64,000 bases of DNA from Escherichia coli. Its GTDB lineage: Bacteria > Pseudomonadota > Gammaproteobacteria > Enterobacterales > Enterobacteriaceae. The stretch lies in NCBI RefSeq assembly GCF_030384885.1, contig NZ_CP128613.1; one strand, written 5' to 3'. The translations under genes were made by a program, and so were the position numbers. The notes beneath the pieces were generated by a model, which saw nothing but the letters and a program-made list of their open reading frames with translations, did no database searches and was not told the DNA's origin. Positions 10,696-31,510 of the stretch are shown here, in pieces. How positions within the stretch are numbered: position 1 is the stretch's first letter; every line of letters begins with the position of its first letter.

Positions 10696-10796
10696 CGTAG
10701 TCCGGATAAGGCGCTCGCGCCGCATCCGGCACTGTTGCCAAACTCCAGCACCGCAATAATGTCGGATGCGATGCTTGCGCATCTTATCCGACCTAC
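10696..10796. repeat. REP/BIME-type palindromic units (two, inverted)
   Basis: gtagtccggataaggcgctcgcgccgcatccggca and gtcggatgcgatgcttgcgcatcttatccgacctac. Confidence 0.6.
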
Positions 10797-11044
10797 ACCT
10801 TTGGTGTTACTCAAGGCGATTTTTTAACATTTCCATAAGTTACGCTTATTTAAAGCGTCGTGAATTTAATGGCGTAAATTCCTGCTATTTATTCGTTTGC
10901 TGAAGCGATTTCGCAGCATTTGACGTCATCGCTTTTACGTGGCTTTATAAAAGACGACGAAAAGCAAAGCCCGAGCATATTCGCGCCAATGCGACGTGAA
11001 GGATACAGGGCTATCAAACGATAAGATGGGGTGTCTGGGGTAAT

Positions 11045-20467: not shown

Positions 20468-21547
20468 TTAATTAATTTCAAAATCCAGATCCAGGTCGTC
20501 TTCCTTCTCATCAGTCGAAGGCCCATTTTTACGCGCCAGACTTTTCAGCACGTTCACACAAACTGCTGTCACTACTGCCCCGACAGCCACTGCGGCGATA
20601 TAACCCAGCTTGCCTTCAACCACAGGCAGCACAATCAGACCACCCCAGCCTGCATAGCACTGCGCACCGACCAGCGCCGCAGTCACTGCACCACAAACTG
20701 AACCGACCATGATGGAAGGAATGACACGCAGCGGATCGGCAGCGGCGAAAGGAATCGCCCCTTCAGTAACCCCAACACACCCCATCACCAACGCCGCTTT
20801 GCCGGTTTCGCGCTCTTCTGCAGAGAAATTTTTACGACCAATCAGCGTCGCCAGCCCCATGCCCAACGGTGGAACACAAATCCCCACGGCAGCAATGGCC
20901 ACCACGGTATAAACGCCCTGAGCCACACAGATCAGCATGAAGGCATAGGCCACTTTGTTAACCGGGCCGCCCATATCAAAGGCCAGCATCAATCCCATGA
21001 TCACCGCCAGCATCACTACGCTGCCTTGTTGCATGCCCTGAAGCCACTGGGTCAGGCTGTTGGTCAACGCCCCCACCGGCTCGCCCAGTCCCCACATCAT
21101 GACACCAGCGGTAATCAGTGTGCCGACGATCGGAATGATGAAGATTGGCATCACCGAGCGCAGAACTTTATGCACCGGAATTTTCTTCAGGTAATGCACC
21201 ACGATGCCGCCGATAATCCCGGCGATCAGCGCGCCAAAGAAGCCCGCACCAAAGCTGTTACCAACCCAGGCACCGATAGCGCACGGAGCCAGCGCAGAAC
21301 GTTCTGCAATGGAATAACCGATGTACGCTGCGAGGAAAGGCACCATCAGCGTCAACCCCGCAACGCCGATATCAAACAGTTTTTTTAGATTCGGATCGGC
21401 TACGGCATCCGGCACTGCGCCTTTGCCATACAACATGACGGAAACCGCCAGCAAAATACCGCCCGATACCACGAAGGGAATCATATGTGAAACGCCCGTC
21501 ATTAAATGCTGACGGGTATTTTTCAGGATCTGCACCAACTCATTCAT
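20468..21547 (-). CDS. frwC: PTS fructose-like EIIC permease
   Basis: Polytopic membrane protein; start set at internal Met (MNELVQILKNTRQ...). Confidence 0.85.
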   Translation of the reverse strand: MNELVQILKNTRQHLMTGVSHMIPFVVSGGILLAVSVMLYGKGAVPDAVADPNLKKLFDIGVAGLTLMVPFLAAYIGYSIAERSALAPCAIGAWVGNSFGAGFFGALIAGIIGGIVVHYLKKIPVHKVLRSVMPIFIIPIVGTLITAGVMMWGLGEPVGALTNSLTQWLQGMQQGSVVMLAVIMGLMLAFDMGGPVNKVAYAFMLICVAQGVYTVVAIAAVGICVPPLGMGLATLIGRKNFSAEERETGKAALVMGCVGVTEGAIPFAAADPLRVIPSIMVGSVCGAVTAALVGAQCYAGWGGLIVLPVVEGKLGYIAAVAVGAVVTAVCVNVLKSLARKNGPSTDEKEDDLDLDFEIN

Positions 21548-21855
21548 AAGCTGCTCCCGGGCTTGCAAAAGCCCATGTCCATATTTTTGATGGAGGAAAC
21601 AATAGGCAATCGCAGGCGGAGCAAACAGTGGATAAAAAGGCCATTTACTGGACTTTTGTAATATCAGTACAAAAATGCGATCCGCCTCATAACTTGCGAT
21701 AACCCGGAAGCATGCCGCAGAACGGCGTCTTGTGAGACGCGTCGCAAATTGACGGTTACATTACATTTGTCCAGCTTTTGGCAGATTTGTCACATGGCAG
21801 GCCGTTGCCGTGCGCTCTTATCCTGTAAACAGAAAACCGTACCGGGAGAGAGGCA

Positions 21856-24357
21856 ATGGCCCTGATTGTGGAATTTATTTGTGAGCTACCTAACGGCGTA
21901 CATGCGCGTCCGGCAAGCCACGTTGAAACGCTGTGTAATACTTTTTCATCACAAATTGAGTGGCATAACCTGCGCACTGACCGCAAGGGCAACGCCAAAA
22001 GCGCCCTTGCGCTGATTGGCACCGATACGCTGGTGGGCGATAACTGCCAGTTACTGATTTCCGGGGCCGACGAGCAGGAAGCGCACCAGCGTTTAAGCCA
22101 ATGGCTGCGCGATGAATTCCCCCACTGCGACGCACCGCTGGCAGAAGTAAAATCTGACGAACTGGAGCCGCTGCCGGTTTCACTGACCAACCTGAATCCG
22201 CGAATTATCCGCGCCCGCACCGTGTGCAGCAGTAGCGCAGGCGGCATTCTGACGCCGATCTCTTCTTTAGATCTCAATGCGCTGGGTAATCTTCCCGCTG
22301 CCAAAGGCGTTGACGCCGAGCAATCCGCGCTGGAAAACGGCCTGACGCTGGTACTGAAAAACATTGAGTTTCGTCTGCTGGATAGCGACGGTGCTACCAG
22401 CGCGATTCTGGAAGCGCACCGATCCCTGGCTGGCGATACTTCCCTGCGCGAACATTTACTGGCAGGCGTCTGCGCCGGATTAAGCTGCGCCGAAGCAATT
22501 GTTACCAGTGCGAATCACTTTTGCGAAGAGTTTTCCCGTTCCAGCAGCAGCTACCTGCAAGAACGCGCGCTGGATGTGCGCGATGTCTGCTTCCAGTTAC
22601 TCCAGCAAATCTACGGCGAGAAACGCTTTCCGGCACCGGGCAAGCTGACGCAGCCCGCCATTTGTATGGCTGATGAACTGACCCCTAGCCAGTTCCTCGA
22701 ACTGGATAAAAATCACCTCAAAGGATTGTTGCTCAAAAGTGGCGGCACTACCTCACACACGGTGATCCTTGCCCGTTCGTTCAACATTCCGACGCTGGTT
22801 GGTGTGGATATTGATGCCCTTACTCCGTGGCAGCATCAAACGATTTATATCGACGGCAACGCTGGGGCGATTGTGGTTGATCCTGGAGAAGCCGTAGCCC
22901 GTTATTATCAGCAAGAAGCCCGCGTACAGAACGCCCTTCGTGAGCAACAGCGTGTCTGGCTGACCCAACAAGCCCGTACCGCTGACGGTATCCGCATTGA
23001 AATTGCCGCTAACATCGCTCACTCCGTCGAAGCGCAGGCCGCATTCGGCAATGGTGCGGAAGGCGTTGGTTTGTTCCGCACTGAAATGCTCTATATGGAT
23101 CGCACCAGTGCACCGGGCGAAAGCGAGCTGTACAACATTTTTTGTCAGGCGCTGGAGTCCGCCAACGGACGCAGCATTATTGTGCGCACTATGGATATTG
23201 GCGGTGACAAACCCGTTGATTATCTGAATATTCCCGCAGAGGCAAACCCGTTCCTCGGTTATCGCGCCGTGCGTATTTATGAAGAGTACGCGTCGTTATT
23301 TACCACGCAGCTACGATCGATCCTGCGCGCCTCCGCTCATGGTAGCCTGAAAATCATGATCCCGATGATCTCTTCAATGGAAGAGATCTTATGGGTGAAA
23401 GAAAAACTGGCAGAAGCTAAACAGCAGCTGCGTAACGAACACATTCCGTTTGATGAGAAGATCCAGCTCGGTATCATGCTTGAAGTGCCGTCAGTAATGT
23501 TCATCATCGATCAATGCTGTGAGGAGATTGATTTCTTTAGTATTGGTAGTAATGACCTGACGCAATATCTGCTGGCAGTGGATCGCGATAACGCTAAGGT
23601 AACTCGTCACTACAACAGCCTGAATCCGGCATTCTTACGAGCGCTTGATTACGCCGTGCAGGCAGTGCATCGCCAGGGCAAATGGATTGGTCTGTGCGGT
23701 GAACTGGGGGCGAAAGGTTCCGTGCTGCCGTTGCTGGTCGGTTTAGGGCTGGATGAGTTGAGCATGAGTGCACCGTCAATTCCGGCGGCGAAAGCGCGAA
23801 TGGCGCAACTTGATAGCCGCGAATGCCGCCAGTTACTCAACCAGGCAATGGCCTGCCGTACTTCGCTGGAAGTGGAACACCTGCTGGCACAATTCCGCAT
23901 GACGCAACAGGATGCACCACTGGTCACCGCCGAGTGCATCACGCTGGAAAGCGACTGGCGCAGCAAAGAAGAAGTGCTCAAAGGCATGACCGATAACCTG
24001 CTGCTGGCGGGCCGCTGCCGCTATCCGCGTAAACTGGAAGCCGACTTGTGGGCGCGCGAGGCCGTTTTCTCTACCGGTCTGGGCTTTAGTTTTGCCATTC
24101 CACACAGCAAATCAGAACACATTGAGCAGTCCACCATCAGCGTGGCGCGTCTGCAAGCGCCAGTGCGCTGGGGCGATGATGAAGCACAATTCATCATTAT
24201 GTTAACCCTTAACAAACACGCTGCCGGCGATCAGCATATGCGCATTTTCTCGCGCCTCGCTCGCCGCATCATGCACGAAGAATTCCGTAACGCGCTGGTT
24301 AACGCCGCCTCTGCCGACGCTATCGCCAGCCTGCTGCAACATGAACTGGAACTGTAA
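21856..24357 (+). CDS. ptsA: Multiphosphoryl transfer protein (HPr-like, enzyme I-like and EIIA-like domains)
   Basis: 833 aa; enzyme I PEP-utilizing motifs and C-terminal EIIA(Fru)-like domain. Confidence 0.9.
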
Positions 24358-24368
24358 AAGGAAACATC

Positions 24369-25031
24369 ATGGAACTGTATCTGGACACCGCTAACGTCGC
24401 AGAAGTCGAACGTCTGGCACGCATATTCCCGATTGCCGGGGTAACAACTAACCCGAGCATTATCGCGGCCAGCAAGGAGTCCATCTGGGAAGTACTGCCG
24501 CGTTTGCAAAAAGCGATTGGTGATGAGGGTATTTTGTTTGCTCAGACCATGAGTCGTGACGCACAGGGGATGGTGGAAGAAGCGAAGCGCCTGCGCGACG
24601 CCATTCCGGGCATCGTGGTGAAAATCCCGGTGACTTCCGAAGGTCTGGCCGCCATTAAGATGCTGAAAAAAGAGGGTATTACTACACTTGGCACCGCTGT
24701 ATATAGCGCCGCACAAGGATTATTAGCCGCGCTGGCAGGGGCAAAATATGTTGCTCCGTATGTTAACCGCGTCGACGCCCAGGGCGGTGACGGCATTCGT
24801 ACGGTTCAGGAGCTGCAAGCGCTGTTGGAAATGCACGCGCCAGAAAGCATGGTGCTGGCTGCCAGTTTTAAAACACCGCGTCAGGCGCTGGATTGTTTGC
24901 TGGCAGGATGTGAGTCCATCACCCTACCCTTAGATGTAGCGCAACAAATGCTCAACACTCCTGCGGTAGAGTCGGCTATAGAGAAGTTTGAGCACGACTG
25001 GAATGCCGCATTTGGCACTACTCATCTCTAA
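24369..25031 (+). CDS. fsaB: Fructose-6-phosphate aldolase 2
   Basis: 220 aa, [35 protein letters not shown]... transaldolase-like. Confidence 0.9.
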
Positions 25032-25041
25032 AGGAGCAATT

Positions 25042-26145
25042 ATGGACCGCATTATTCAATCACCGGGTAAATACATCCAGGGCGCAGATGTCATTAATCG
25101 TCTGGGCGAGTACCTGAAGCCGCTGGCAGAACGCTGGTTAGTGGTGGGTGACAAATTTGTTTTAGGTTTTGCTCAATCCACTGTCGAGAAAAGCTTTAAA
25201 GATGCTGGACTGGTAGTAGAAATTGCGCCGTTTGGCGGTGAATGTTCGCAAAATGAGATCGACCGTCTGCGTGGCATCGCGGAGACTGCGCAGTGTGGCG
25301 CAATTCTCGGTATCGGCGGCGGTAAAACCCTCGATACAGCCAAAGCACTGGCACATTTCATGGGTGTTCCGGTCGCCATTGCCCCGACCATTGCTTCAAC
25401 CGACGCGCCTTGTAGCGCTCTTTCCGTTATCTACACTGACGAAGGTGAATTTGACCGCTATCTGCTGTTGCCAAATAACCCGAATATGGTCATTGTCGAC
25501 ACCAAAATCGTCGCGGGCGCACCTGCACGTCTGTTAGCGGCGGGTATCGGCGATGCGCTGGCGACCTGGTTTGAAGCGCGTGCTTGCTCTCGTAGCGGTG
25601 CGACCACAATGGCGGGCGGTAAGTGTACTCAGGCAGCGCTGGCGCTGGCTGAACTGTGCTACAACACGCTGCTGGAAGAAGGCGAAAAAGCGATGCTTGC
25701 CGCCGAACAGCATGTAGTAACTCCAGCACTGGAACGCGTGATTGAAGCGAACACCTATTTGAGCGGCGTTGGCTTTGAAAGCGGTGGGCTGGCTGCGGCG
25801 CACGCGGTGCATAACGGCCTGACTGCAATACCTGATGCCCATCACTATTATCATGGTGAAAAAGTGGCATTCGGTACGCTGACGCAGCTGGTTCTGGAAA
25901 ATGCGCCGGTGGAAGAAATCGAAACCGTAGCTGCACTTAGCCATGCGGTAGGTTTGCCAATAACCCTCGCTCAACTGGATATTAAAGAAGATGTCCCGGC
26001 GAAAATGCGGATTGTGGCAGAAGCGGCATGTGCAGAAGGTGAAACCATCCACAACATGCCTGGCGGCGCGACGCCAGATCAGGTTTACGCCGCACTGCTG
26101 GTAGCCGACCAGTACGGTCAGCGTTTCCTGCAAGAGTGGGAATAA
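25042..26145 (+). CDS. gldA: Glycerol dehydrogenase
   Basis: [24 protein letters not shown]...; AAGGAG RBS at 25031-25036; 367 aa. Confidence 0.92.
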
Positions 26146-26152
26146 TCTATGC

Positions 26153-26289
26153 CAAACTCCCGGCTTGTCCGGGAGTTTGAACGCAAAATTGCCTGATGCG
26201 CTACGCTTATCAGGCCTACGAAATATCTGCAACGCATTGAATTTACGTGTTTTTTATGTCTGACAAGGCGTTCACGCCGCATCCGGCAC
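26153..26289. repeat. Stem-loop plus REP-type palindromic units downstream of gldA
   Basis: Perfect 10-bp stem aaactcccgg/ccgggagttt; REP-like gcctgatgcgctacgcttatcaggcctac and gacaaggcgttcacgccgcatccggcact. Confidence 0.55.
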
Positions 26290-26416
26290 TCTGTGCCATT
26301 AATCTGATACTCCCACGTTGTTCGGGAGTTTTTATCCGCTTCTGGACATTTTCTCCACAGAACAATCGTTAGCCCGGAAGGTCGAATCTGTGAATATTTT
26401 TTCACGGACGAAACAG

Positions 26417-27034
26417 ATGAAAGCTTCACTGGCGTTGTTCAGTCTTCTGACGGTATTTACCAGTTACTCCTTAAAATCTCCCGCTGTTCCACCAACCGTG
26501 GTACAAATCCAGGCCAACACCAATCTTGCCATCGCAGACGGTGCCAGACAGCAAATTGGCAGCACGCTATTTTACGATCCGGCGTATGTGCAGCTTACTT
26601 ATCCTGGCGGTGATGTCCCGCAAGAACGCGGCGTATGTTCCGATGTGGTAATCCGTGCATTGCGCAGCCAGAAGGTCGATTTGCAGAAACTGGTGCACGA
26701 AGATATGGCGAAGAATTTTGCTGCGTACCCGCAAAAATGGCAGTTAAAGCGCCCGGACAGCAACATCGATCACCGTCGGGTGCCTAATCTGGAAACCTGG
26801 TTTACCCGCCACGATAAAACACGCCCCACCAGCAAAAACGCCAGTGACTACCAAGCGGGCGATATTGTCTCCTGGCGATTAGATAATGGGCTGGCACATA
26901 TTGGGGTGGTTTCAGATGGCTTCGCCCGCGACGGTACGCCGCTGGTGATACATAACATTGGCGCAGGCGCGCAGGAAGAAGACGTGCTGTTTAGCTGGCG
27001 GATGGTGGGGCATTATCGGTATTTTGCTAAATGA
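26417..27034 (+). CDS. yijF: DUF1287-family secreted protein
   Basis: Start at ATG 26417 (MKASLALFSLLTVFTSYS signal-like N-terminus), 205 aa. Confidence 0.8.
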   Translation: MKASLALFSLLTVFTSYSLKSPAVPPTVVQIQANTNLAIADGARQQIGSTLFYDPAYVQLTYPGGDVPQERGVCSDVVIRALRSQKVDLQKLVHEDMAKNFAAYPQKWQLKRPDSNIDHRRVPNLETWFTRHDKTRPTSKNASDYQAGDIVSWRLDNGLAHIGVVSDGFARDGTPLVIHNIGAGAQEEDVLFSWRMVGHYRYFAK

Positions 27035-27058
27035 GCGCTCGCCCCACCTGTAAAAAAT

Positions 27059-27964
27059 TCAGATCCTTTTTACGCTGACGGCTTCTTTTTTCTTACGGCT
27101 CACCAGCGCCAGTGCCAGCACAATCAGCACAATGCCGCTACCTTCAACGGTCCCCGGATTTTCACCGAGCAGCCACCAGGAAAAGAGTACGCCGCAAACA
27201 GGAACTGCTAACGTGCTTAGGCTGGCGATACTGGCGGGTAAGTTTTTCAATACAAACAGCCATAAGCTCCAGGCCAGCGCTGTCGCCAGAATCGCACTGT
27301 AGGCCAGCGCCCAGAACACGGTGGGCTGCCAGTCAATTTCACGTTGCGGCACCAGCCAAGCGACCACGCTCATCACCAGCGCCGCATAAAGCATCTGCCA
27401 GGATGTTAACGACAATAAATCCACGCGTGGATGGCGGGCGTATAGGCGTTTCGCGACAATCGCGCTCGCCCCCCAACTAACACCGGAGAGGATCGCCAGC
27501 ATGGCGCTTTTCATCGAAGAGAAATCGAGTTGCCACGGCTGCAACACCAAAAATAAGCCGAAAGCGGCAATCAGAATCGCCAAATATTGCCCGCGTCGCA
27601 GGCGTTCACCGAGAAACAACGCGGCGAAAATCACCACCCAGAATGGCATGGTATAGCTCAGGATTGCCACCTTCCCTGCTCCGCCGCTCACCAGCGCCCA
27701 CTGCGCCAGGCCAACCATCCCGCAGGTTTGTAACAGGGCAATGGCTAAGGTGTATTTAAACGGCGTCGGGCGCATTCCGCGACCACGTAATAAAAGGACG
27801 ATGAATAAAACGAGAGCGCCGAAAATGCAGCGTAAAGCGGTAAAGTCGAAGGCACCGATGTAGCTGGTGACTTGCTTCATGAAAATCCAGCTATAACTCC
27901 AGATAAGTGTGAGCACAACCAGGCCACTGATTGCCAGTGGGTTGCTCTTTCCTGCGGCAGACAT
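27059..27964 (-). CDS. yijE: EamA/DMT-family inner membrane transporter
   Basis: Ten-helix hydrophobic profile; start chosen at internal Met, start uncertain. Confidence 0.8.
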
Positions 27965-28057
27965 GAGAGATCCAGTGTGTAGTTTTCCTGTGGACACTAT
28001 ACGCTGGTAAAGAAACTTCAGCGACTGCCAGACAGACAGTCGCTGAAGAAGGTTAGA

Positions 28058-30292
<2,235 letters not shown>

Positions 30293-30565
30293 TTATAATT
30301 GAATTAATCCACGGATGCGATAGTTGAGATCTTACATATTGTTGGTTAAAGAGATGTAGATCAAATTGATCGTAATTAAGACTTTTTGATTATGTCCGAT
30401 TTCGGACAAATGCTTTATAAAAAAGGTTTTAGCTTCGTAAGCTTCAAGAAATGAGGGAGAAAACAAGGCTGACTACCTTATTTTCTCACTCGCATTTCGA
30501 GGCAGCATTTTGTGCTCTGTTTAAAATTTGTGATCACAGTGTGATTTTCACAAAAGGCGCACTAT

Positions 30566-31459
<894 letters not shown>

Positions 31460-31510
31460 TTACCTCATCAATCGCTTGTAGTTATATGTTGTGTTGTGCA
31501 CATCTATCCG

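Follow-up and report, generated by a model that had tools for sequence, protein, structure and literature searches.

A BIME-1 element between two related hairpins in the gldA-yijF spacer of Escherichia coli: a probable composite gene end

The spacer between gldA and yijF contains several palindromes in close succession, which raises the question of whether they represent a small family of related repeats, a terminator, or a structure assembled from different sources. In the window, i.e., the whole stretch of 64,000 nt of E. coli DNA analysed here (NZ_CP128613.1), four parts of the spacer can be distinguished: an upstream hairpin (hp1), a BIME-1 element, a downstream hairpin followed by a T-run (hp2), and the presumed yijF leader. 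The features of the locus are as follows.

25042-26145, plus strand: gldA, glycerol/L-1,2-propanediol dehydrogenase, 367 aa (open reading frame list, RefSeq annotation, 100% protein matches named GldA)
26146-26416: gldA-yijF spacer, 271 bp
26153-26179, plus strand: hp1, perfect 11-bp stem with the 5-nt loop CTTGT, beginning 7 nt past the gldA stop
26190-26288: BIME-1, composed of y REP, linker L and z1 REP
26190-26219, plus strand: y-type REP in iREP orientation, left half of BIME-1; TGCCTGATGCGCTACGCTTATCAGGCCTAC, intact, with the CTAC end at 26216-26219
26220-26255, no strand assigned: long linker (L) of BIME-1, about 36 nt, with the IHF-like core ATTCAATGCGTTG on the minus strand at 26230-26242
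26256-26288, plus strand: z1-type REP, right half of BIME-1, degenerate in this strain
26309-26333, plus strand: hp2 and T-run; 6-bp stem ACTCCC (26309-26314) / GGGAGT (26324-26329), 9-nt loop, then TTTTT
26334-26416, plus strand: near-invariant yijF upstream region, which bounds the palindrome cluster and lies outside it
26417-27034, plus strand: yijF, DUF1287 protein (open reading frame, RefSeq annotation, Pfam PF06940 on the Salmonella orthologue)

The gldA stop codon is TAA (26143-26145), and the RefSeq annotation of both genes was taken from the identical region of strain 2013C-4282 and from K-12. All sequences quoted in the initial annotation are found where it placed them, and its view that the spacer is more than one simple terminator holds. 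With a probability of roughly 0.78, the whole is best explained as a composite 3' end of the ptsA-fsaB-gldA transcription unit which was built stepwise. Gene ends with REPs, BIME-1 elements, or terminator hairpins are textbook knowledge. The palindrome cluster is an ordinary E. coli gene end, already known in kind, and only mildly new in that a split, duplicated terminator flanks a polymorphic repeat slot.

The middle element belongs to the long-described BIME-1 class. BIME-1 elements (RIP/RIB; Bachellier/Gilson classification according to PMC3333891) are defined by a y and a z1 REP in inverse orientation, a single copy, and a long conserved linker L that often contains an IHF site (PMC3333891). 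Likewise, the spacer carries inverse REPs, whose CTAC and GTAG ends face the linker in the orthologues, as a single unit with a recurrent linker and an IHF-like core, located at the 3' end of a transcription unit. Both REP-like units of the initial annotation are indeed real REPs, the z1 type of the second being assigned by likeness to the published description and not by consensus scoring. They pair with each other in the fold of the whole region. For the y REP a folding energy of -13.2 (z = -4.1) was obtained, and for the z1 REP one of -11 (z = -1.0). The exact REP core GCCGGATGCGGCG is present on the minus strand at 26275-26287. In the linker, the IHF-like core differs by one mismatch from WATCAANNNNTTR and occupies the same position as in K-12; the K-12 version of the linker is itself dispersed, recurring at a median of 18 places per genome. 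Similarly, a median of about 20 matching places per E. coli genome was obtained for the REP-containing parts of the spacer. A curated RNA family in the spacer was rejected, since the Rfam scan gave only sub-threshold partial matches to ES036 (linker) and naRNA4 (REP units, far below the threshold), which reflect the REP/BIME content.

In contrast to a regular BIME-1, the z1 half is decayed in this strain. It has ATGT in place of GTAG, its outer stem is disrupted and two stem pairs are lost; in the alignment, GTAGGCCGGATAAGGCG of K-12, Escherichia sp. E1V33, and E. albertii stands against ATGTCTGACAAGGCG here. By the rules given in PMC3333891, the decayed z1 REP should no longer be recognised by TnpA-REP. 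The BIME-1 is single and non-tandem in the window, K-12, O157, E. albertii, and E. whittamii. An exception is given by MOD1-EC7003 (L011, positions 1-290, upstream of yijF), where the BIME-1 is opposite in orientation to that of E. coli and occurs in tandem, as two or more copies of a unit of about 165 nt; because the contig breaks off within this repeat, the link to gldA is out of sight.

On the gldA side of the BIME-1, the arms of hp1 read CAAACTCCCGG (26153-26163) and CCGGGAGTTTG (26169-26179). The stem is perfect, as the initial annotation had it, but comprises 11 bp rather than 10. As RNA, hp1 folds with -20.3 kcal/mol (z = -5.4), a value equalled by none of 200 shuffles. Judged as an intrinsic terminator, hp1 possesses the stable GC-rich stem-loop but lacks a U-rich tract directly past the stem: the tail UUUGAACG has three U residues only, and the sequence 3' of the hairpin, TTTGAACG, contains no T-run. 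The hp1 orthologues of Escherichia spp., Salmonella, Klebsiella, and Citrobacter differ in stem sequence, and all are fully paired, with energies from -16.9 to -24.5 kcal/mol. Five versions of the stem were found, namely CTCCCGG/CCGGGAG, CTCCCGC/GCGGGAG, ACTCCTGAC/GTCAGGAGT, CACCCGGC/GCCGGGTG, and ATCCCCGC/GCGGGGAT. Compensatory changes were detected at three of the five pairs of the MAFFT/RNAalifold consensus, a count that understates conservation because orthologues with 4-nt and 5-nt loops were left out of register, and the folds of the individual sequences are thus preferred. Due to the fact that it is perfectly paired in every lineage examined despite sequence change, hp1 is maintained by selection.

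On the yijF side, the T-run past hp2 reads TTTTTAT, with AT at 26334-26335. In the window hp2 folds with -8.4 kcal/mol (z = -1.3), a stability reached by 20 of 200 shuffles. Across lineages the stability of hp2 ranges from -3.6 kcal/mol in K-12 to -19.6 kcal/mol in the SCPM-O-B-8794 lineage (deposited as E. coli; SCPM hereafter). The stem has been lost in K-12, where about -3.4 to -3.6 was obtained and no hairpin remains, and in most E. coli. The U5 tract lies 3' of a stem that is weak here, absent in K-12, and strong in the SCPM lineage. Neither hp1 nor hp2 is a canonical terminator. A simple terminator scan called neither of them, hp1 being missed because it has no T-run and hp2 because its loop exceeds the 8-nt limit of the scan. 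A terminator-like call at 26319-26348 was given no weight, as shuffled sequences give as much.

The two hairpins are related to each other, as the initial annotation had noticed. They are direct repeats within 153 bp, in the same orientation, with 19 of 23 bases matching (83% identity); their local alignment reaches a score of 26, compared to a mean of 12.2 and a maximum of 23 for shuffles, none of 2000 scoring as high. Significance is reached in the window, E1V33, SCPM, and E. albertii, where no shuffle attains the observed score, and nearly reached in K-12 and E. whittamii. With two related copies within 153 bp, and with cores of CCGG type in both stems as in many mobile palindromes, one could think of a small dispersed cccgg/ccggg palindrome family, distinct from the REPs and with members elsewhere in the genome, as the initial annotation did. 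We give this hardly any credence. The pattern CTCCC-N5-12-GGGAGTTT occurs in the 64-kb window only at the hp1 and hp2 sites (0.01 matches expected), and a third copy was not found in the window either with up to 3 mismatches or with the gapped pattern. Genome-wide, hp1 (37-nt query) has a median of 1 and a maximum of 2 places per genome in 5,422 complete E. coli genomes, and hp2 (50-nt query) a median of 1 place per genome in 5,421, with the restriction that blastn with 11-nt words misses copies below about 80% identity, so that very diverged members of a family would escape these counts. Both observations named beforehand as speaking against a family were essentially made: extra copies are lacking genome-wide, and the K-12 spacer (4,137,658-4,137,931 of NC_000913.3) shows the same architecture, although with 91% identity rather than as an identical sequence. 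Hence hp1 and hp2 are a local pair and not a new dispersed repeat family.

The origin of this pair becomes apparent from the outgroups. In Klebsiella, the gldA TAA is followed by 8 nt and AAAACACCCGGCGACAGCCGGGTGTTTTTTATGC and then by convergent yijE; in Citrobacter, gldA is followed by AAAAATCCCCGCGATTGCGGGGATTTTTTAT and convergent katG. Both gldA ends thus consist of one hairpin and TTTTTTAT, without yijF, REP, or second hairpin, and hp1 and the outgroup hairpin are situated at equal distance from the gldA stop. The Klebsiella/Citrobacter element is a textbook intrinsic terminator with a GC-rich 12-bp stem, a 4-nt loop, a U6 tract directly past the stem, and an upstream A-tract. In Escherichia, by contrast, the stem (hp1, followed only by UUUG) and the U5-6 tract (at hp2, with its stem weak or missing) are split and lie about 150 nt apart. 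The tail TTTTTTAT(C/G)C, which follows the single terminator in Klebsiella and Citrobacter, is found past hp2 in Escherichia. Judging from these single-hairpin outgroups, hp1 and hp2 most likely arose when a single ancestral terminator hairpin of gldA was duplicated locally and in direct orientation. The duplication appears to be direct and not inverted, since hp2 of MOD1-EC7003 has the hp1-type loop GCTTGTCC in the same orientation. The downstream copy, hp2, is a drifting, decaying duplicate of hp1 that holds the ancestral terminator T-run.

The order hp1, BIME-1, hp2 is common to E. coli, E. albertii, E. whittamii, Escherichia sp. E1V33, and the SCPM lineage. Salmonella retains hp1 together with a degenerate REP and a short remnant, CTGAAATAGAC followed by TTTTTTATC; on this basis the duplication is probably older than the split of Escherichia and Salmonella. 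We presume CTGAAATAGAC to be a remnant of hp2, but it is too short for homology to be certain. Against such an old duplication it may be argued that two neutral copies predating Salmonella should differ more than they do, so that selection or gene conversion would be needed. In the SCPM lineage, hp1 and hp2 are identical at 22 of 23 positions and share a derived stem top, which suggests gene conversion or restoring selection. Taken stepwise, the ancestor would have had gldA with one intrinsic terminator, i.e., a stem-loop about 8 nt past the stop followed by TTTTTTAT. In the Escherichia lineage this hairpin would have been directly duplicated (about 23-25 nt, AAACTCCC...GGGAGTTT), with repeat DNA coming to lie between the copies; hp1 upstream would have been cut off from the T-run, which hp2 downstream would have retained, and the slot between them would have been filled by BIME-1 in most Escherichia. 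Duplication may have preceded insertion or both may have been simultaneous, as the data fit both orders. The locus offers a clean, datable case in which duplication around a repeat has separated the stem of an intrinsic terminator from its U-tract, each now on its own copy; read-through from gldA into yijF is accordingly predicted to vary between strains.

With respect to gene content, yijF is situated between gldA and katG/yijE in Escherichia and Salmonella and is absent from this position in Citrobacter and Klebsiella. Beyond the enterics, the best matches of a genome scan (at most 61% identity) occur in Acinetobacter, Chryseobacterium, and Acidobacteria. Due to this pattern of presence and absence and the distant best matches, horizontal acquisition of yijF is suggested. 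In Salmonella and Citrobacter, yijE, too, is missing from the locus.

The slot between the hairpins does not always contain BIME-1. This allele is present in about 4,588 of 5,425 E. coli genomes, while in about 15% of E. coli (796 records, at least 95% identity) it is replaced by a BoxC/PIT/TMECO inverted pair of about 180 bp, e.g., in the gldA-yijF spacer of E. coli O166:H15 JNE070796 (L002, positions 377-567). In this allele the BoxC/TMECO motif CCCTCNCCC-N3-6-GGGNGAGGG-N3-GGGNGAGGG occurs twice in inverted arrangement. BoxC/TMECO elements are repeats associated with intrastrand triplexes, for which a consensus and five inverted pairs of type B and type A in K-12 have been published (PMC4666352); the BoxC allele of the slot resembles them, being an inverted pair of type B and type A that matches the consensus. 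Per genome, this element occupies a median of 6 places. In the spacer of the window the motif does not occur, so that BoxC/PIT/TMECO concerns this locus only as an alternative allele. Because the pair stands there in place of BIME-1, the slot shows itself to be a polymorphic landing site for repeats. A further inhabitant is IS621 (IS110 family), described as REP-specific (PMC1525189), which in E. coli no107 (L003, positions 1-600) is inserted in the y REP with its right end abutting ...CTACGCAATCTC. With BIME-1, the BoxC/TMECO pair, and IS621 alternating, the slot may serve as a small test case for repeat turnover. An "empty" allele with one hairpin was not encountered in 40 sampled E. coli records (of 5,426), all of which aligned in two pieces to the synthetic junction query; a sample of this size could miss rare alleles.

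The bounds of the slot bear on the way in which the hairpin was duplicated. Both cargo alleles, BIME-1 and the BoxC pair, share the same bounds, ...GGGAGTTTGA on the left and TCTGAAACTCCC... on the right, and the hairpin copies lie immediately outside this only variable segment of the spacer. Together with the single hairpin of the insert-free outgroups, this would fit a target-site duplication, produced when a repeat element (BIME-1 or a predecessor) inserted into the gldA terminator, possibly via staggered cuts at the base of the extruded hairpin. If so, the duplication would be a direct footprint of how such elements insert. This origin is nevertheless unlikely. IS200/IS605-type transposases are not known to duplicate their target, which would hold for TnpA-REP as a member of this family, and target-site duplications usually fall well short of 23-25 nt. 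Furthermore, the four other K-12 loci with a BoxC/TMECO pair lack a significant flanking direct repeat, and the hairpin duplication is thus not a general signature of BoxC insertion. TnpA-REP, related to the IS200/IS605 transposases, has been linked to the spread of REP/BIME (PMC3333891). That hp2 forms part of the BoxC-pair element itself, as a BLAST extension of the alx-sstT copy into CACGTTG had indicated, was rejected, since other copies diverge there and the flank comparisons at the other loci are non-significant.

It is tempting to speculate that the hairpin pair, which is both a direct and an inverted repeat, acts as portable recombination arms around the cargo slot. Such arms, improbable as we consider them, would explain the exchange of BIME-1 and BoxC, the inverted and tandem BIME-1 of MOD1-EC7003, and the apparent homogenisation of hp1 and hp2 in SCPM, and the duplication itself would then be the footprint of an insertion into the extruded terminator hairpin.

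Returning to the composite gene end, its roles in termination and stabilisation are inferred from its anatomy and from what is generally known about REPs and terminators; for the RNA 3' ends of gldA, no entry was found in the published Term-seq supplements examined. REPs have been credited with mRNA stabilisation and partial termination as stable 3' structures (PMC3333891). On the RNA, hp1 and the REP/BIME stems would be expected to block 3'-to-5' exonucleases and may pause RNA polymerase; on the DNA, BIME-1 is a predicted site for IHF and gyrase. Where its stem is intact, i.e., in this strain, E. whittamii, and the SCPM lineage, hp2 with its U-run could bring about canonical intrinsic termination. 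In K-12-type strains, which have lost the hp2 stem, termination is probably leaky, and read-through into yijF is plausible because the remaining stem (hp1) and the U-tract are about 150 nt apart. Since each arm of hp1 necessarily has a complement in hp2, the 3' arm of the former might instead pair with the 5' arm of the latter and so enclose the BIME, alternative folds then setting the degree of read-through from gldA into yijF. The location of both genes on the same strand with only 271 nt between them and the lack of a strong sigma-70 consensus upstream of yijF in the promoter scan are compatible with such a regulatory switch, but we regard it as very improbable: minimum-energy and centroid folds of the gldA 3' UTR agree on hp1, one long hairpin of the paired REPs, and hp2 with the U-run, i.e., both outer hairpins stay local, and due to the loss of hp2 in K-12 and most E. 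coli the switch would not be conserved.

Compared to K-12, not only the spacer has diverged. The surrounding 10.4 kb (positions 20500-31500 of the window) are about 95.5% identical to K-12, and the spacer as a recombination breakpoint in this strain was rejected for this reason, the whole region and not the spacer alone being diverged. At an identity of at least 99%, the spacer was found in only 23 of about 5,460 records, with 2013C-4282 at 100%. The YijF protein is 97% identical to that of Escherichia sp. E1V33, 96% to that of E. whittamii, and 93% to that of the E. coli species representative. Considering the low K-12 identity, the few records at 99% or above, and the closer relation of YijF to E1V33 and E. 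whittamii, the window appears to derive from a divergent E. coli lineage or the region to have been introgressed, either of which would fit these sequence relationships.

Two minor observations concern the yijF upstream region and another part of the window. The 83 nt before the yijF start are invariant in nearly all alignment columns across E. coli, E. albertii, E. whittamii, E1V33, and MOD1-EC7003; this stretch varies less than the neighbouring coding sequence and contains an inverted repeat, TTCTG...CAGAA. Positions 26334-26416 are presumed to be the yijF promoter or 5' leader, and the invariant stretch may be a regulatory leader. Elsewhere in the window, at 10697-10797, a second REP pair (BIME), GTAGTCCGGATAAGGCGCTCGCGCCGCATCCGGCA ... 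TGTCGGATGCGATGCTTGCGCATCTTATCCGACCTAC, is located right after a gene end.
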